A DNA stretch of 17,495 nt from the UHGV virus genome UHGV-0117107; one strand, 5' to 3'. Position 1 is the stretch's first letter. Each line of letters opens with the position of its first letter. The stretch comes from a virus. Both the position numbers and the translations under genes were made by a program. The notes below the pieces were generated by a model. That model saw only the letters and a program-made list of their open reading frames with translations. It was not told where the DNA came from and searched no databases. This document shows, piece by piece, positions 1 to 8,399 of this stretch.

Positions 1-2429
1 CCCGCTATTTTTAGCAATGTTCCGGCTTTAAGATTCTGTTGCCATGATTCCAAACTTCCCTTAACGCCATCAAGTATTTTTTTAACGTTATCTAAGAAAC
101 TTATTTTTTCGAATGGATCAGATAATCCTTTAATAAAGTTTCTTATGGCTAGTAATATTCCAGCAAACAATCCGCTGTTTAATACTTCGAAAATATCGCC
201 TTTACCAAAGGCATCGGCTATCATATTACCTATATCGGAAAAAGCTTCTCCGATGGCCGCGCCAACCGACTTTATAGTGTTCCATAGACCGGAAAAGAAG
301 CCAAGAAAACCTTGAAGTGTAGGAGAAATCTTAAAACTCTCAATAAGTGAGCGTCCAAACTCTGCTATTTTTGAAATCCCGTTGCTAAGAAATCCAACAA
401 TTTTATCAACTGCGTCGCCAAACAGATTTCCTTCTACTATGGAGTCTCTCACATTCGAGATAAAATCTCCAAAAGAACTCGTTGCATCCAGTATTCCTCC
501 ACCAAGTCCGGTGAAGTTTCCAATAATATCTAGAGCGCCTTTTCCAACAGCTTTAAAAGCCTCTATAACAATATCGATAGCGGAAAAGATTCCTTTAAAT
601 GTAGATTTTATTTTAGATGCAGCGCCTTCACTTACTTTTAAAGTATCAGTGAAAGCTTTGAATCTATCAATCATACTTACTACTTGGTCGACTGTAGTAG
701 GTGGAAATATCTCTCTAAAAGCTTCTTTTATCGGTTTTATTATATCTCCAAGGAATTTGAATATATTTTTCAAACCCTCTATAATTTTTTCTCTACCGCC
801 AAGCTCGGTTATTCCATCGATAAGACCATCTATGTTGTCTTTTAATTTATTCGTAGATTCGTTTGCTTCATTTAGCGCTTTTAATGTAGCGTCATCAACG
901 ATACCTGTTATTTCTAAATCGTTAGCTTCCTGAAAAGCTTTAATAGCTGACTCTGTGGCACTTCCGAAAATTCCATCAGCACCAGAATCGCCAATATCAT
1001 AGTTAAGGCTTTGTAATGCTTTTTGTACTTTTGTTACGTCGTCTCCTGTATTACCTTTCGATAAACCGGCTTCGACTCCACTTAAATCTACAAGTTCGCC
1101 TTTTAATCCGCTAACAGCTTCTTTTAAAATATCAGAAGATATGGCACCAGATTGAAAAGCTTTTTCTAGAGAACCATATTTTTTTATGATCTCGTCCATA
1201 TTAACGCCATGGTCCTCAGCAATCGATCTAACTTTTTCCTCAAAAGTATCGGTTTCTACACCAGCTTCATTTATTTTTTTTACAAGCTTATCCCAGTTAG
1301 AAGACATCGCGCCTTCCAATAATTCGTTACGAGATTTCGCTGATGATTCAACCATCTTTCCAATGGTATCTGAAATTCCAGTGAACAATTCTTTGGAGTC
1401 TTCAAAATCACCGACAAGTATTCTCCAAGTTTGACCCCATCCAGATTGGAGAGATTCTTTTACCGTATCTATCAGCTGTGTGAATGTTTTTACTTTTGTA
1501 GCAGCGTCTTCAGCGTCCTTCGCTAAAGCCATAATATCGTTTGCTTGAGATTCGCTATAACCTTGGGCAATAAGATCGGCCTTACTATATGCGCCAGACA
1601 ATTGGTTAAGAGTTTCAGTTAATACCTCGGTCGTTAACCATTCACCTTTTGTTAGGCTTTCTCTAAAGCTGCCATATGTATCAATAGCTTGTTTAGCGCC
1701 TGTTCCCAAAAGTTCAGACGTTCTAACAAGTGCGTCCTGAAATACCTTACCACCCATACCGGCATTAACAACTGAGTTCCAGTCCATAAGACTAACTTTA
1801 CCTGCCGCCAATGCCTGAGAAAGCTGATACATCGCAGTAGATGCCTGTTGAGAAGTTGATCCAGAAACTGCGGCCAAGTTCGCAATACCTTTAATAGCAT
1901 TAACTGAGGTATCAAGTTTTACACCAGCTGCTGTAAACGTACCGATATTACGAGTCATTTCCGTAAAATTGTAAATCGTCTTATCGGCATATGTATTTAG
2001 CTCATCTAAAGCCTTATTTACAATATCAACATTAGTGCCTTCCTGCCTTGTATTGGATAGAATTGTCTGAATAGCACCAATCTGAGTTTCGTATTCTTGG
2101 AAACCGCTTTTAACCGGATCTATAGTTAATGCTGATATCATACGTTTACCAGTGTTAACAGCCTGGTTAGTGATGTTTGCTAAAGCAGTTACACCAGCGA
2201 CCTGTAGTGCTGAAAATTTAGCCTGAACTGTCTCTATACCACTGCTCATTCCTGCAAAGCTAACACCTTTAGCAGCCTTACCGACATTCTCCAACCCTTT
2301 GGAGGCACCAGATAGATTTAACTTTTGTTTGAGCTTATCGAGAGTTGACATACTGGTTGCGACTCCGCTCTCAAACTGCTTATTGTCGAACCGCATCTCC
2401 AAGACTCTGTTGTCAATAGTCGTACTCAT
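1..2429 (-). CDS. Phage tail tape measure protein, 5' portion only (first ~809 codons; gene continues past window start); carries an internal peptidoglycan-binding-like domain
   Basis: ATG at 2427-2429 (minus) preceded by GGAGGGAGG; reading frame stays open to position 1 (checked at both ends and mid-gene), which explains its absence from the ORF track. Translation starts MSTTIDNRVLEMRFDNKQFESG and contains TIYNFTEMTRNIGTFTAAGVKLDTSVNAIKG and LAAGKVSLMDWNSVVNAGMGG, motifs recalled as typical of siphovirus tape measure proteins. The start overlaps the upstream stop as ATGA. Confidence 0.85.
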   Translation of the reverse strand, partial: MSTTIDNRVLEMRFDNKQFESGVATSMSTLDKLKQKLNLSGASKGLENVGKAAKGVSFAGMSSGIETVQAKFSALQVAGVTALANITNQAVNTGKRMISALTIDPVKSGFQEYETQIGAIQTILSNTRQEGTNVDIVNKALDELNTYADKTIYNFTEMTRNIGTFTAAGVKLDTSVNAIKGIANLAAVSGSTSQQASTAMYQLSQALAAGKVSLMDWNSVVNAGMGGKVFQDALVRTSELLGTGAKQAIDTYGSFRESLTKGEWLTTEVLTETLNQLSGAYSKADLIAQGYSESQANDIMALAKDAEDAATKVKTFTQLIDTVKESLQSGWGQTWRILVGDFEDSKELFTGISDTIGKMVESSAKSRNELLEGAMSSNWDKLVKKINEAGVETDTFEEKVRSIAEDHGVNMDEIIKKYGSLEKAFQSGAISSDILKEAVSGLKGELVDLSGVEAGLSKGNTGDDVTKVQKALQSLNYDIGDSGADGIFGSATESAIKAFQEANDLEITGIVDDATLKALNEANESTNKLKDNIDGLIDGITELGGREKIIEGLKNIFKFLGDIIKPIKEAFREIFPPTTVDQVVSMIDRFKAFTDTLKVSEGAASKIKSTFKGIFSAIDIVIEAFKAVGKGALDIIGNFTGLGGGILDATSSFGDFISNVRDSIVEGNLFGDAVDKIVGFLSNGISKIAEFGRSLIESFKISPTLQGFLGFFSGLWNTIKSVGAAIGEAFSDIGNMIADAFGKGDIFEVLNSGLFAGILLAIRNFIKGLSDPFEKISFLDNVKKILDGVKGSLESWQQNLKAGTLLKIA

Positions 2430-2803: not shown

Positions 2804-2818
2804 TTTGATCTTTCTCCT

Positions 2819-4237
2819 TTACAGTAGCTCGTTAACTCGATCCTGAATTTTCTGAATCATGTTGTGATCGTATCCAGCTTTTGCGAGGGCATTAATTCGT
2901 GCATCTCCATTACCGTATTTTCCGGCAATGACATCACGGGCTACATTATCAATCACTATCTGATTTACTTTCTTCTGCACAGTGTCTGGATTATAACCAG
3001 CTTTCTTGAGAGCAGACACACGAGCATCACCATTACCCCATTTACCGGCGATTACTTCTTTAGCAATTTCATCGATAGATTTGGTCGGTTTTGGCGTAGA
3101 TGTAGGTTTAGATGTTGGTGCTGGTGTGGAAGAACTTTTCGCATATTTTGGTCTAGCAAAACCACGAATCATACCCCAGCCAACCGGAATGGTACGTCTT
3201 GCTACTGCTTCTCCTCTGTTACCTTCAATCGCTGTGATTTGTCCGTTTGAAACAGATTCCACATACCCGATATGATCAGAATATCCGTCGTTTGGCTGAG
3301 TCTTATCATCCCAGTTATAAACAATTACATCACCAGGTTTCGGAGTAATGGTGCCGTCCTCGACCCAAATGCCTTTCTGCTTAAAAATCTTAATATGTTC
3401 CTCACAACCAACTTCTGTACCGATGAGATCGACTGCTCCGGATTTGATAGCTGCTGCTGATACTGTACAATCACACCATTCATCATTAGGTTTAATAGCG
3501 TATCCGCGAGCCAAAGGTTTGTGAGAATTATAGATGTTAAGAATCTCAATATATTTACCGTTAGCTTCAGAATAACCGAGCCAACTTCTCATAACATTAA
3601 GAACGTCCTGTGCTGTTACACCCAATTCCGTATCCTCCTGTTTTCCGTAAAAATAGTTCATGTCGACTTTACCTTTAATACCGCCTACAGTTCCGGAACT
3701 CGTATACTGATGAACCAAACAACCGTAATCTGCTTTTCCGTTATAATCAGCGAGCCAGAATTTGTACTGTTTAATCAGATCATGATTATACCAATTTCGA
3801 TAGTAGTCGATATTTGCGTAGATTCCAGCTTTGTATCCCTGAGATTCTACGTACTCACAAAAGATTCTTGTAAAGTTATTACATTCATTTTTACCAAGTC
3901 TCACACCTTTTGCAGCTGCTTTCTTGACTGTGTCATATTCGAAATCTGCGAAGATGATTGTGTTTTTATCAAGACCAGCTTTTCTAACAACATCAACACA
4001 GAATTTTGCTTCGTCAAGTGCGCCCTGTTCGTTTAAGGCATAAATAAAATGGTAAGTTCCTATAATCGGAATCTTGTTGTTTTTACACCCATTGACATAC
4101 TCATAGAATTTTGAATCTACTGTCTTCCTGTAAGAAGATCTAAGAATCGCGAACTCTATTCCGGAGGACTTGACTTTAGAAAAATCTACATCTCCCTGCC
4201 AATAGCTGATATCAATTCCTTTCTTCACAATCATCAT
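2819..4237 (-). CDS. Modular peptidoglycan hydrolase (endolysin-type): N-terminal GH25 muramidase, central CHAP/NlpC-P60-like cysteine peptidase, Ser/Thr/Pro linker, two C-terminal CW_7 (Cpl-7-type) cell-wall-binding repeats
   Basis: 472-aa ORF. N-terminus GIDISYWQGDVDFSKVKSSGIEFAILR and later HQYTSSGTVGGIKGKVDMNYFYG match the GH25 signature; central WCDCTVSAAAIKSG ... DHIGYVESV ... TAIEGN fits a Cys/His/Asn CHAP-like domain; linker KSSSTPAPTSKPTSTPKPTKS; two repeats EVIAGKWGNGDARVSALKKAGYNPDTVQKKVN and DVIAGKYGNGDARINALAKAGYDHNMIQKIQ. Start ATG overlaps upstream stop (ATGA). Confidence 0.88.
   Translation of the reverse strand: MMIVKKGIDISYWQGDVDFSKVKSSGIEFAILRSSYRKTVDSKFYEYVNGCKNNKIPIIGTYHFIYALNEQGALDEAKFCVDVVRKAGLDKNTIIFADFEYDTVKKAAAKGVRLGKNECNNFTRIFCEYVESQGYKAGIYANIDYYRNWYNHDLIKQYKFWLADYNGKADYGCLVHQYTSSGTVGGIKGKVDMNYFYGKQEDTELGVTAQDVLNVMRSWLGYSEANGKYIEILNIYNSHKPLARGYAIKPNDEWCDCTVSAAAIKSGAVDLIGTEVGCEEHIKIFKQKGIWVEDGTITPKPGDVIVYNWDDKTQPNDGYSDHIGYVESVSNGQITAIEGNRGEAVARRTIPVGWGMIRGFARPKYAKSSSTPAPTSKPTSTPKPTKSIDEIAKEVIAGKWGNGDARVSALKKAGYNPDTVQKKVNQIVIDNVARDVIAGKYGNGDARINALAKAGYDHNMIQKIQDRVNELL
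2822..3080 (-). repeat. Two tandem CW_7-type cell-wall-binding repeat units (coding, C-terminus of the lysin)
   Basis: Two ~40-aa protein repeats with the (V/I)IAGK(W/Y)GNGDAR...AGY core; the underlying DNA segments are visibly similar (approx 2860-2950 vs 2980-3070). Confidence 0.7.
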
Positions 4238-4794
4238 CCTTTCGAATTGAATTTCTTTCTTCGAGCTGCATTCATTTCAGCATAACGACTCATTAATTCT
4301 CGCTTACTTGTCTGTTTAGGTGGCTCATTGTGAGCACTACATACCCTTATCAAAGTAATAAGTCTATTAAGATGCCATTTTTCACACTCAAATGGAATAT
4401 TGTTTGCAATCATCCAATAATATATAAGCTCTGACGTTATGATCTCTCGATTTTTCTTTCCAGATCTTCTGTCATTGATAGTAGTTGCTGTCATTGGAGC
4501 ATAAATATAGTCAGTTATTTGCTTTAAGTTATCTTCACTTAACCGACCATACACACTTGGATCAACATTCTTATTGAGTGTCATACACCTTATGTAATCT
4601 ATTGTTTCTTCAATGGTTTTCTCTTTATTTGTATAAAAAGGTTTACACCATTTTGATTCCCATTTTGAAAGAGAGATGAGTGAATGTTCTAATTGTAGTG
4701 TCTGCTCTTTCTGAGCTGGCACGGGTATAAACACTTGATTTCCTTCATCCCATAATTCGTCAGCTTCTCTAGCAGGTACTATAATCTGAATCAT
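4234..4794 (-). CDS. Putative tail assembly protein (Gp15-like, the family found immediately upstream of tape measure genes in Firmicutes siphophages)
   Basis: 186-aa ORF, ATG preceded by GGAGGGATGAGTA; no transmembrane segment; sits between the chaperone-like gene and the tail operon. Family assignment is from memory of the pattern and position only. Confidence 0.45.
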   Translation of the reverse strand: MIQIIVPAREADELWDEGNQVFIPVPAQKEQTLQLEHSLISLSKWESKWCKPFYTNKEKTIEETIDYIRCMTLNKNVDPSVYGRLSEDNLKQITDYIYAPMTATTINDRRSGKKNREIITSELIYYWMIANNIPFECEKWHLNRLITLIRVCSAHNEPPKQTSKRELMSRYAEMNAARRKKFNSKG

Positions 4795-4823: not shown

Positions 4824-5237
4824 TTAAGCTCCTGGAAGCAGATTCTTTGAATTAGCTTCCTGTGCAACATCAGCCGGAACGATGCCGTTAATAAATGCCG
4901 CTGCTGCTTCTGCGTCTGTAGCAAGTTCCATGAAGAGTGTGGAATAAGCTTCTGTCTGTGAAAACTTTCTTGACAGTGGTCTTCCGTCCTCATCAAGTTT
5001 CATGAAACCTTTACCATCCGGAGCCTTTTCTCCATATGCTTTAAGAATAAGATCTTTAAAGATAGCTACGATTGTCGGAGTATCCTGTGCTGCCACGACT
5101 TTCTCAATCATCTCAGCGAATCCACCAACTGTAGATAATTCCATCTCCATAATTTCTGCTTTAGAAAGGTTGAAGTAATATGTATCTTCTCTTTCTACTC
5201 CGTTGTAATCTGTGTATTTAATAGCTTTTTTTAACAT
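4824..5237 (-). CDS. Putative tail assembly chaperone (137 aa)
   Basis: First gene downstream of the major tail protein and its terminator; ATG preceded by AAAGGAGAACAAC; acidic C-terminus (ELATDAEAAAAFINGIVPADVAQEA) typical of tail chaperones. Assignment by position and composition. Confidence 0.5.
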   Translation of the reverse strand: MLKKAIKYTDYNGVEREDTYYFNLSKAEIMEMELSTVGGFAEMIEKVVAAQDTPTIVAIFKDLILKAYGEKAPDGKGFMKLDEDGRPLSRKFSQTEAYSTLFMELATDAEAAAAFINGIVPADVAQEANSKNLLPGA

Positions 5238-5273: not shown

Positions 5274-5308
5274 AAAAAAAAAGACCCCACCTATTGCTAA
5301 GCGGGGCC
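5274..5308 (-). terminator. Rho-independent terminator for the minus strand, immediately after the major tail protein gene
   Basis: In minus-strand RNA: GGCCCCGC (5301-5308), 10-nt loop UUAGCAAUAG, GUGGGGUC (5283-5290) giving an 8-bp GC-rich stem with two G-U wobbles, followed by a run of 9 U (plus-strand A run 5274-5282). On the plus strand the same hairpin would have A-C mismatches and no downstream T run. Confidence 0.6.
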
Positions 5309-5333
5309 TATCGTTATTCCATTACTTAGTTAC

Positions 5334-5999
5334 TTACGCACCTGTCGTAGTTTTCATCATAGTAGCAACCTCATCCGGGAGTGGAAGTCTTGCTTCTGTA
5401 TCCTCGTCACCGTAAAGAACTGCCTCCAGTGCTGCCAGTTTAGTTGGATCAGCTGTGGTAGAGTCGATTATGAGATGAGATGTAGGTTTGAAATTAGCTA
5501 CAGATACCGGAGTAGTACTACACTCCCAGGACATAGTAGCCGCTTCCGGACTATCATTTACAGTCGCACGAGATACTTCGGAAGGAGCTGCAAGAGCACC
5601 GTATACCAGATGCAGTTTGTAACCATGTGATTCGCCCTCTGTATCATTACCAATAAGGCTTCGATAAGATAAACCGAAATTTTTACGTTTCTGCTGTCCA
5701 ATCTTAACGCCGGTTGCAATTTCTCCTTCACCGTTACATTCTGCGAATTCATCGGGATACATATAAGCTTCGATTGTGAAACCAAATTCCTCAGCGGACA
5801 TAAGTGTCACATACTTAATGTTATCTGCATAGAGCGGTGTCGGTTCTGCTCCAGATGGTGATTCTGTTACAGCTGTAAGACCATTCCATGCTGCTCCTTT
5901 CGGATAGTTTCCATCAGTTCCCATTGGATAAATTACGCCATGATCGACGCCAGTTTCAAACAAACGTTCGCCTGTTGCGTCCCATACAAGTTTAGCCAT
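5334..5999 (-). CDS. Major tail protein (siphovirus type)
   Basis: 221-aa ORF with GGAGGAAATCAAAT upstream of the ATG; N-terminus MAKLVWDATGERLFETGVDHGVIYP...AAWNGLTAV...YADNIKYVTLMS resembles recalled major tail proteins of Firmicutes siphophages; followed by an intrinsic terminator, as is common for major tail genes. Confidence 0.75.
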   Translation of the reverse strand: MAKLVWDATGERLFETGVDHGVIYPMGTDGNYPKGAAWNGLTAVTESPSGAEPTPLYADNIKYVTLMSAEEFGFTIEAYMYPDEFAECNGEGEIATGVKIGQQKRKNFGLSYRSLIGNDTEGESHGYKLHLVYGALAAPSEVSRATVNDSPEAATMSWECSTTPVSVANFKPTSHLIIDSTTADPTKLAALEAVLYGDEDTEARLPLPDEVATMMKTTTGA

Positions 6000-6653: not shown

Positions 6654-8399
6654 TTAGGCAGTTTCTTTCACGAATTCAAGAGCTACTGCGGAATACGGTT
6701 TAACAAGTGTACCGGAGCAACGTGTCTCCATAAGATACTTCTGCTTGTTGTAATCGATATCGAAATCATCGAAGAAGTTGATTTCTCCACCCTTATCTGT
6801 ACCTACGTTGTAATCTTTAAGATTTACATAGATACCAGCAAGCTCATATGTCTTATTTTCATCGTCTGTTCTTGTAAGACCTTCCATTACCGGAACCGGA
6901 ACGATTTCTCTTACGCGAAGAGATGCTGCAAGTTTCTGTACGCTATCATAGATAACACGTCCGTTTGTATCTTCAATGAGCAAGCAATCTGTAAGCATAT
7001 CCTCAGACATGAACATATCAGGGTTGCCAGATCCTTTATAATTCTTTCTGGATTTGATGCAAGCTTTGATGAATGCCTTAGCTTTCTCTTCAGCAGTAGC
7101 GGAATCGCTTACATTGATAGCTGCTTTAACTGTGAAAAGATCTTCCATCTTCCAGATAGGTCTGATGCAGTCCTCATTGATTTTATCGTTAGCCTCTTCA
7201 ACCGGATCTCTTCCATCACCGATAAGGAATGCGCGAGCAAGTTCCTCATCAAGCATCATACGAACTTCTCTCTTCAGCCATGGAAGAATATCGAAATCTG
7301 TAATATCAAGCATGTCATCGCGATCTAATGCCTGTTTCTTGTATACAGTTGTTGGATTTGTTACACGTTTGAGAAGCTTAAATACTTCTTCAATTTTAAG
7401 TTTGCCTTTCTGGTATCCCTTTGCTCTAGCCTGTGCTGCTGTGATGTCAGCAAAGATAGTTTTGATACGGGAGAACGGTGTGTGATGTACTCCGCCAAGT
7501 ACTTTTGATACCCAATCGTCATTACGTTTGATAAATTCCGGTTCATTGTTAAGATTCTTTGCATCCGGGAATAAGATGTCAATGTCTGTGATACCATGAG
7601 CAAGCACTGCCTCTTTAAGAGAACCTGAGCGTTTCGCATCTTCGAAAATCGCAGTCATCTCGGAGTGTGTAAGCACATCATCTGCCATAGGGGTTTCATT
7701 GTCGAATACGTTGTGTTTCATATTTTTGTTTCCTCCTTCATTTTCATCATCTTCTTCGGTTTCAACACCAGCATCTTCTAATGCCTGTCCGATCATAGCG
7801 TACACAACAGTTTTCTGTTTCTCAGAAAGAGTGTTGAATACATCAGCTACAGTTTCGTCCTTATTTTCTTCGGCATTATGTTTTTTGGTTTCTTCTGCCA
7901 TTTTTTCTTCTCCTTTCTCAGAAGTATCTGCGTGGAACAATGACTCCACATTTTCGATATATTCGCCTGAGCTGATATATCCCTCTTCATAAGAATCTTC
8001 GCCATGCATCATGACAGACTCTATTACTGCGCCTGGATTAGCACCAGCTAAAACCAAACTAAGCTCACGAATGACTCCGTGAACTACATTACTTCCCTGC
8101 TGTTTAAGTCTGTTGGCATATATGGAAAATCTATTCACATCACCATGCTGAACCAGCAATTTAGCATTCTGCCCTGATTCCGTATCGTTAAATGTGCAAT
8201 ATGCATACACACCTTCGTCCCTGTTTTCCAGCAAGGCATGACCGAGCACTTCATCTACGCTATTATGCTGATGATTCCAAACTAACGGTACAGTTTCACC
8301 ATCGCACTCTTTGAATGCATCTTTCATGATGACTCTACCGTCCGCACACAGCATGTCAGCTTTAGTAGCCCAGCCAGAACAATCATATGACTTAGCCAT
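6654..8399 (-). CDS. Prohead protease - scaffold-like linker - HK97-fold major capsid protein fusion (581 aa)
   Basis: N-terminal ~140 aa carry prohead serine protease-like motifs (WNHQHNSVDEVLGH, RFSIYANRL, ELSLVLAGANPGAVI); residues ~150-330 are an acidic, charged linker (EDSYEEGY...ETEEDDENEGG); the C-terminal ~250 aa end in LAGIYVNLKDYNVGTDKGGEINFFDDFDIDYNKQKYLMETRCSGTLVKPYSAVALEF, resembling HK97-family capsid C-termini. ATG preceded by AAAAGGAGGCAGAAAATCAAA. Confidence 0.8.
   Translation of the reverse strand: MAKSYDCSGWATKADMLCADGRVIMKDAFKECDGETVPLVWNHQHNSVDEVLGHALLENRDEGVYAYCTFNDTESGQNAKLLVQHGDVNRFSIYANRLKQQGSNVVHGVIRELSLVLAGANPGAVIESVMMHGEDSYEEGYISSGEYIENVESLFHADTSEKGEEKMAEETKKHNAEENKDETVADVFNTLSEKQKTVVYAMIGQALEDAGVETEEDDENEGGNKNMKHNVFDNETPMADDVLTHSEMTAIFEDAKRSGSLKEAVLAHGITDIDILFPDAKNLNNEPEFIKRNDDWVSKVLGGVHHTPFSRIKTIFADITAAQARAKGYQKGKLKIEEVFKLLKRVTNPTTVYKKQALDRDDMLDITDFDILPWLKREVRMMLDEELARAFLIGDGRDPVEEANDKINEDCIRPIWKMEDLFTVKAAINVSDSATAEEKAKAFIKACIKSRKNYKGSGNPDMFMSEDMLTDCLLIEDTNGRVIYDSVQKLAASLRVREIVPVPVMEGLTRTDDENKTYELAGIYVNLKDYNVGTDKGGEINFFDDFDIDYNKQKYLMETRCSGTLVKPYSAVALEFVKETA

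Follow-up and report, generated by a model that had tools for sequence, protein, structure and literature searches.

In the cluster DJ Gordonia phages, the structural module contains the gene for lysin B, with about 15 kb separating it from those for lysin A and the holin (PMC12859696, PMC9671378); it occupies a slot bordered upstream by a homologue of Lactococcus phage 1706 gp16 and downstream by a gp10-like gene. In the Arthrobacter AM/AU phages, the endolysin is situated upstream of the terminase, an arrangement likened to that of the cluster A mycobacteriophages (PMC5513430). Faecalibacterium phage FP_oengus (Oengusvirus) and the Lactococcus 1706 group (P118) have the same head–tail module and the same order of border genes as the virus contig UHGV-0117107 described here; in these phages the slot is empty, and in FP_oengus an endolysin–holin pair follows the tail genes. 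In UHGV-0117107, the slot is occupied by a gene for a modular lysin at positions 2819–4237. The window, i.e. the whole stretch of DNA analysed, is the entire metagenomic contig of 17,495 bp (ENA ERZ1755062, NODE_792), and the exact sequence of the lysin occurs on no other contig. The lysin is probably the phage's own principal endolysin of the canonical holin-dependent kind: it would be produced late, along with the tail proteins, and let out through a holin encoded at a distance.

The modular lysin and its slot

The first-pass annotation, made from the letters of the contig, had proposed a complete lysin of GH25, CHAP and two CW_7 modules at this position; the list of open reading frames (ORFs) and Pfam bear this out, with the gene on the minus strand. 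The gene, its domains and the borders of the slot are as follows.

2819–4237, minus strand: modular lysin gene, 472 aa, ATG start, TAA stop (ORF list, Pfam, PHROGs and PDB matches)
3677–4216, minus strand: GH25 muramidase domain, residues 8–187 (Pfam PF01183 Glyco_hydro_25, E 2e-29)
3218–3478, minus strand: CHAP cysteine peptidase/amidase domain, residues 254–340 (Pfam PF05257, E 2e-8)
2822–3076, minus strand: two CW_7 repeats, residues 388–428 and 429–472 (Pfam PF08230, two stretches, E 2e-34)
4234–4794, minus strand: 186-aa gene (product termed p186), PHROG 4338, homologue of Lactococcus phage 1706 gp16; upstream border of the slot
2804–2818, minus strand: 15-nt spacer with the Shine–Dalgarno sequence (AGGAG) of the next gene, sequence AGGAGAAAGATCAAA
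2426–2803, minus strand: gp10-like/tail completion (Neck1) gene, 125 aa (PHROG 5, E 1e-13; synteny); downstream border of the slot

Residues D9, D98, E100 and D192 of the GH25 domain and C255, H322, E338 and N340 of the CHAP domain are invariant between the lysin and eight homologues. The CW_7 repeats, preceded by a Pro/Thr/Ser/Lys-rich linker, are identical to each other at 22 of 40 residues. The PHROGs matches are to endolysin or amidase families only, and the PDB sequence matches comprise the CW_7 domain of Cpl-7 (5i8l, E 1.5e-29) and GH25 endolysins and autolysins; a sub-threshold GH-like match overlaps the GH25 domain. Pfam and PHROGs give GH25, CHAP and CW_7 only, with no tail structural domain. 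In addition, the hydropathy scan reveals no transmembrane (TM) segment and, with the GH25 domain beginning at residue 8, no apparent signal peptide. As expected of an endolysin, the protein possesses catalytic domains with intact residues and a C-terminal wall-binding module of the Gram-positive type, and has no TM or signal-arrest-release (SAR) segment.

The two junctions reported in the first pass are likewise found in the sequence: the lysin start shares ATGA (4234–4237) with the stop of the upstream 186-aa ORF, and a 15-nt gap precedes the gp10-like gene, whose own stop overlaps the start of the tape measure protein (TMP) gene as ATGA. On either flank of the lysin, no promoter-like or terminator-like site rises above chance, and the GC content is even across the region. 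Together with the overlapping starts and stops, these features point to co-transcription and coupled translation of the lysin with the tail assembly chaperone (TAC), p186, the gp10-like protein and the TMP.

The confirmed relatives of p186 number 502 in IMG/VR and 240 in GenBank phage records; among them are those of FP_oengus, the Lactococcus 1706 group (P118, P092), Rhodococcus phage ReqiPepy6, the Streptomyces Rimavirus phages, and the Arthrobacter AU-type and Gordonia DJ-type phages. The gene order common to these relatives is major tail protein, (TAC), p186, slot, gp10-like and TMP. Among 129 distinct related loci with both border genes, picked by similarity to the query proteins, the slot contains a lysin alone in 69 and a lysin with one or two small TM proteins in 35, is empty (gap <120 nt) in 23 and carries small fragments in 2. 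A lysin is therefore present in the slot of about 80% of the sampled relatives. Nearly all large clusters of slot proteins are represented by peptidoglycan hydrolases that also carry wall-binding modules; the two exceptions, of 225 aa and 158 aa, have no Pfam match. The amidases are Amidase_2 with SH3, SPOR or CW_7 and Amidase_3 with CW_7 or PG_binding_1, and the other types are CHAP with CW_7 or PG_binding_1, GH25 with or without CHAP plus CW_7, Phage_lysozyme2 and ELLD. The slot is the usual lysin site of the 1706/Oengusvirus-like siphophage lineage.

The variety of the slot lysins extends to single modules. Loci L092 and L094 are about 82% identical through TAC, p186 and GH25; the identity is lost over the CHAP and wall-binding part and is back at the gp10-like gene, so the lysin modules have been exchanged in place. 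The same two loci are about 93% identical over the downstream 11.5 kb and have identical Dit proteins, yet show this domain-level swap inside the lysin (L092, 2024–3016). A family of 225–246 aa without a Pfam match fills the slot in L159, L160 and L167 (L167, 1888–2562) and may be an unrecognised lysin family; its member in L138 is located among the post-tail membrane proteins.

In the scan of bacterial genomes, the nearest full-length homologues of the lysin (54–59% identity) occupy the same slot, in a Ruminococcus sp. metagenome-assembled genome (MAG), an unclassified MAG and Lachnospiraceae bacterium 1XD21-87. A three-module homologue of 58% identity (L212) lies directly behind small TM proteins, as do many CHAP+CW_7 homologues in Blautia, Mediterraneibacter, Faecalicatena and Porcincola; these loci are unrelated Lachnospiraceae prophages with the layout of a canonical lysis cassette. 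One TM protein beside a homologous lysin is an r1t-type holin; the others mostly have no match in Pfam. This distribution points to the Lachnospiraceae as the host group, and the homologues behind small TM proteins indicate that the lysin family acts elsewhere as a holin-adjacent endolysin.

The low coverage (4x) of this metagenomic contig and the non-canonical-looking position of the gene might suggest an assembly artefact, in which a lysis gene was joined chimerically into the tail operon. Such an artefact has next to no probability. The synteny comparison proposed in the first pass finds the same gene order in >100 independent contigs and in bacterial assemblies including that of Lachnospiraceae bacterium 1XD21-87, and the junctions (the ATGA overlap and the 15-nt spacer with its Shine–Dalgarno sequence) are precise. 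Misassembly and recent foreign insertion are ruled out by synteny and uniform composition. The first-pass annotation had coupled a possible misassembly of this copy with the occurrence of the gene at the canonical lysis position in relatives; homologous lysins are indeed found at canonical positions in other phages, and this copy is not a misassembly.

Holins, alternative lysin sites and the role of the lysin

A hydropathy scan of all ORFs of at least 30 aa detects no small multi-TM protein on the coding strand, in agreement with the earlier remark that the window holds no holin; the sole match in a real gene is the C-terminal hydrophobic segment of a 181-aa DUF7211 protein. Since the window is the whole contig, this result speaks for about one quarter to one third of a genome of ~60 kb. 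In the relatives, the p186-anchored 10-kb flanks are taken up by full-length TMPs of 2000–2400 aa, and the slot and the post-tail region were viewed together by re-anchoring on the gene after the TMP, plus one further walk. Of the 36 lysin-only loci in which 7 kb or more follow the TMP, 34 have post-tail small TM proteins and no match there to the catalytic domains of the lysin panel used for BLAST. The TM proteins sampled are Phage_holin_Dp1 (E ~3e-32) or Phage_holin_5_2 (Hol44).

Two genomes display this division. The closest relative, IMG/VR contig 3300045988_061906 (p186 66%, major tail protein 78% and gp10-like 81% identical to the window), has a GH25+CW_7+LysM lysin in the slot and, about 22 kb downstream, an 89-aa holin of the Hol44 family and an 88-aa one-TM protein; the genes beyond these two are on the opposite strand. 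No lysin lies beside this holin, and there is no second lysin in the ~41 kb retrieved of the 89-kb contig. In MT835495.1 (69.8 kb), the slot contains an Amidase_2 lysin with a sub-threshold SH3_3 match, and a Hol44-family holin is located at the prophage end, adjoined by bacterial sortase and MutS2-like genes; the lysin panel matches nothing besides the slot lysin in the 69.8 kb. MT835495.1, a 'Bacteriophage sp.' GenBank record, is itself a prophage with host flank (L086, 39103–44653), and the genes beyond its holin resemble by eye those for a Cna-B-type surface protein, a sortase, a MutS2-like and a CbiD-like protein.

These genomes bear on the proposal that the slot enzyme is an auxiliary or second lysin, broadening the host range or speeding lysis, while a standard holin–endolysin pair lies off the contig after the tail genes. 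The remainder of the genome is indeed off the contig, locus L138 possibly has a slot lysin together with a post-tail lysin-like gene, and phages with two lysins are known, such as ValentiniPuff (PMC7302621). However, no second lysin is found near the post-tail membrane proteins in 34 of the 36 lysin-only relatives with coverage, nor in the retrieved part of the closest relative or in MT835495.1, and a second-lysin role is improbable.

In some relatives with an empty slot, a lysin is located elsewhere. Besides FP_oengus, with its post-tail endolysin and holin, L169 has post-tail small TM proteins (the one tested has no family match) followed by a Phage_lysozyme+CW_7 lysin, and L168 has a GH25-like gene after the tail genes. 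In L068, a CHAP gene is situated about 9 kb upstream, before the terminase, in agreement with the site of lysin A in the Arthrobacter, Streptomyces and Gordonia relatives (PMC5513430). The slot, post-tail and pre-terminase lysins of the relatives therefore represent three alternative lysin sites in the lineage. The pre-terminase site falls inside this window, where it carries DUF7211 genes and no lysin.

In the actinophage relatives, the slot has genes annotated as tail proteins, glycoside hydrolase or LysB. In the Rimavirus phages, it contains a 598-aa 'chitosanase/glycoside hydrolase' (L083, 10614–12410, which is Streptomyces phage Rima gp21; L207, 13969–15765); these phages also encode an endolysin before the terminase and a holin beyond the tail genes.

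The tail-protein annotations in this slot are among the points in favour of a virion-associated peptidoglycan hydrolase, i.e. an enzyme built into the tail, for example via the gp10-like protein or the TMP, that digests the wall locally at DNA injection. The gene is part of the tail module, its translation is coupled to that of tail genes, and no holin gene adjoins it; its product pairs two catalytic domains, as some virion-associated lysins, such as HydH5 and phi11 gp49, reportedly do. Furthermore, the TMP of the contig has only a wall-binding domain and no catalytic domain is recognised in the full-length TMPs of two relatives, so the tail appears to bind peptidoglycan without a recognised hydrolase, and a separate enzyme could complement the TMP. 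Virion-associated lysins generally have no wall-binding module, whereas this protein has the size and layout of a classic endolysin with CW_7 and no structural or tail-attachment domain. Unrelated lysin types are swapped freely in the slot, which is hard to fit with a fixed structural interface, and small TM proteins stand beside the slot lysin in 35 relatives. The slot is empty in 23 relatives, which shows that the lysin is not needed for tail building, and the lysin-only relatives would be left with a holin but no endolysin. A virion-associated role, which the first-pass annotation had put forward, thus finds no positive evidence in a pure endolysin architecture whose homologues lie behind small TM proteins, and is quite unlikely. 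The other proposal of that annotation, a relocated lysis gene co-expressed with structural genes, is supported by the lysins in most slots, often accompanied by holin-like membrane proteins, and by the orphan post-tail holins.

A broader proposal, also unlikely, is that the interval between the 1706-gp16-like and gp10-like genes is a dedicated exchange hotspot for whole lysis cassettes, single lysins and lysin domains in the phages of Firmicutes and Actinobacteria, with the lysin additionally delivered by the tail and serving both lysis and entry. A dual role of this kind would be in keeping with the tails of these phages, in which no catalytic domain is detected but wall-binding modules are present: PG_binding_1 or CW_7 in the TMP and a LysM-like motif in the tail protein that follows it.

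A holin-dependent endolysin of the phage's own remains the most likely reading, given the slot occupancy, the orphan post-tail holins, the lysins found elsewhere in some empty-slot genomes and the homologues behind TM proteins. Several points weigh against it. The actinophage genes show that the slot is not exclusively a lysis locus, and the loci were sampled by similarity and not at random. In Pfam and PHROGs, most small TM proteins located within slots match no family or families without a known function, and a single weak Holin_LLH/PHROG holin match is the exception. By a BLAST panel of limited sensitivity, the lysin is not located in 10 of the 12 empty-slot loci with coverage, so the complementary pattern is incomplete. 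Moreover, L138, whose slot contains a lysin only, has among its post-tail membrane proteins a 246-aa ORF that matches the lysin panel; this ORF starts 6996 nt past the end of the TMP gene and matches a slot protein without a Pfam family, so two lysins per genome may occur. Finally, the contig ends inside the TMP gene, short of the region where the phage's own holin and any second lysin would lie.

In the mechanism proposed for the holin-dependent endolysin, TAC, p186, lysin, gp10-like and TMP would be transcribed late as one unit, with translation tightly coupled on both sides of the lysin. With no signal sequence, the lysin would build up in the cytoplasm. A holin presumably exists in this phage, on which the lysin would depend and which would open the membrane at the end of the cycle; its gene is predicted after the tail-fibre genes, about 20 kb downstream and past the contig end, and its predicted family is Hol44 (Phage_holin_5_2) or Dp-1. 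The CW_7 repeats would then bind peptidoglycan, the GH25 domain would cut the glycan strand, and the CHAP domain would cut the peptide stem or cross-bridge.

Surrounding genes and lineage of the contig

The features adjoining the slot region are as follows.

3–2429, minus strand: TMP gene, N-terminal 809 aa, truncated by the contig end; PG_binding_1 at residues 461–519
4824–5237, minus strand: tail assembly chaperone gene (Phage_TAC_17, Pfam E 1.6e-37)
5282–5309, minus strand: terminator-like hairpin of 12 pairs with a T-run behind it, separating the major tail protein gene from the TAC gene
5334–5999, minus strand: major tail protein gene (PHROG 2645, E 3e-106)

The hairpin at 5282–5309 is the sole strong terminator-like signal near the lysin, and may act as an attenuator that lowers the expression of the TAC–lysin–TMP block relative to the tail tube protein. 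The label 'Gp15-like', given in the first pass to the 186-aa gene, has no support: Pfam gives nothing even at E<=10, the PDB sequence search gives nothing, and the sole match of the protein, PHROG 4338, is a family with no assigned function. The label 'gp10-like' stands as far as PHROG 5 (tail completion/Neck1) supports it and has no other source; the gene is a homologue of 1706 gp17, a 'structural protein'.

Every real gene of the contig is on the minus strand. The transcription order starts with a 114-aa ORF of unknown function, an HNH-type gene and a Phage_connect_2 gene, followed by four tandem DUF7211 genes, TerL, a small crAss001_48-like gene, a collagen-repeat gene and the portal gene. 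The protease–capsid fusion, a DUF7253 gene, a tail-terminator-like gene and the major tail protein gene come next, and then Phage_TAC_17, the 186-aa gene (PHROG 4338), the lysin, the gp10-like/Neck1 gene (PHROG 5) and the TMP gene. The HNH-type gene has no family match, and its label is a position match to annotated HNH endonucleases in relatives.

The contig is from a 1706/Oengusvirus-like siphophage of Lachnospiraceae. It has the structural module of that group in order: the protease–capsid fusion, DUF7253, major tail protein, TAC_17, the 1706-gp16-like and 1706-gp17-like genes, and a TMP with a wall-binding domain. Among GenBank phages, no near-identical DNA is found beyond the terminase gene, which is 77% identical to one record. 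In the protease–capsid fusion (6654–8399, minus strand), a single 581-aa gene joins a prohead protease (Peptidase_S78) and a capsid domain (Phage_capsid), the same fusion as noted for the Arthrobacter AM/AU and Gordonia DJ phages.

Between TerL and the portal gene, a collagen-triple-helix repeat protein of 198 aa (10035–10631) and an 81-aa crAss001_48-related protein (10650–10895) are encoded on the minus strand; the latter carries the name 'Sequestin' in the precomputed annotation. The DUF7211 genes (12762–16125, minus strand) are four tandem paralogues of 190, 378, 352 and 181 aa, which have only an N-terminal motif of 20–25 aa in common (YHHGVKGMKWGVRRY) and are divergent beyond it. This array is located between the HNH/connector genes and TerL, where the actinophage relatives have lysin A.

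Wall-binding repeats are also encountered in the tail proteins of the relatives. The TMPs of L094, L141, L173, L174–L178 and L201, as well as L035 (11959–12369), contain CW_7-like repeats in place of PG_binding_1. In the closest relative, an 881-aa tail protein right after the TMP (L002, 19091–20558, which is L171, 10001–11467) opens with a sequence that resembles a LysM motif, and after this start resembles FN3-type repeats by eye; its homologues in relatives match a short segment of a slot lysin. In addition, a reverse transcriptase gene (RVT_1, E 7e-17) lies in L092 (16105–17202) between the tail genes and the Dp-1-type holin. This gene is found in relatives carrying the same GH25+CHAP+CW_7 lysin, and may be a diversity-generating retroelement acting on a tail-fibre gene.

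Comparison with known lysis systems

The arrangement is a variation of gene order and involves no new kind of enzyme or mechanism, and its significance is mainly for annotation and enzyme mining. In this abundant gut and soil phage lineage, the endolysin should be sought between the tail chaperone genes and the TMP gene and not beside the holin, and a missing 'lysis cassette' in such genomes is no evidence of a missing lysin. A single late transcription unit can have its holin and endolysin genes separated by about 20 kb. Furthermore, the slot lysins form a naturally occurring series of exchanged catalytic and wall-binding modules directed against the walls of Lachnospiraceae.

The enzyme itself belongs to familiar families and can best be likened to a Cpl-7 to which a CHAP domain has been added. 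It is alike in its GH25 acidic residues to the Cpl-7 endolysin of pneumococcal phage Cp-7 (GH25 with three CW_7 repeats) and to the GH25 endolysins Psm and PlyB, and its C-terminal CW_7 repeats match the solved CW_7 domain of Cpl-7. Compared with Cpl-7, the lysin has a CHAP domain between GH25 and the repeats and two CW_7 repeats instead of three, and its gene is among the tail genes and not beside a holin. Virion-associated hydrolases of Gram-positive siphophages such as HydH5/phi11 gp49 and Tal2009 are reportedly also encoded in the tail module and may pair two catalytic domains, as the lysin does; however, they are said to have no dedicated wall-binding module and to be fused to or part of tail structures, and the lysin has no such domain.

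With regard to position, the first-pass annotation had treated the placement as anomalous, which goes too far: a large phage lineage is normally arranged in this way, and lysis genes split around the slot are described in actinophage relatives (PMC12859696, PMC9671378). The literature searched gave no description of how the Firmicutes branch is arranged, with p186 and the gp10-like gene enclosing a peptidoglycan endolysin and, in some cases, small membrane proteins. The Arthrobacter AM/AU relatives likewise have their endolysin away from the post-tail position, but at another non-canonical site. The Gordonia DJ phages and Rhodococcus phage ReqiPepy6 have the same structural module, with homologues of p186 and the gp10-like protein, and a lysis enzyme in the same slot far from the holin; in these phages, however, the slot contains the mycolate esterase LysB and extra tail-protein genes, with lysin A upstream of the terminase, whereas the slot of UHGV-0117107 contains a peptidoglycan endolysin.

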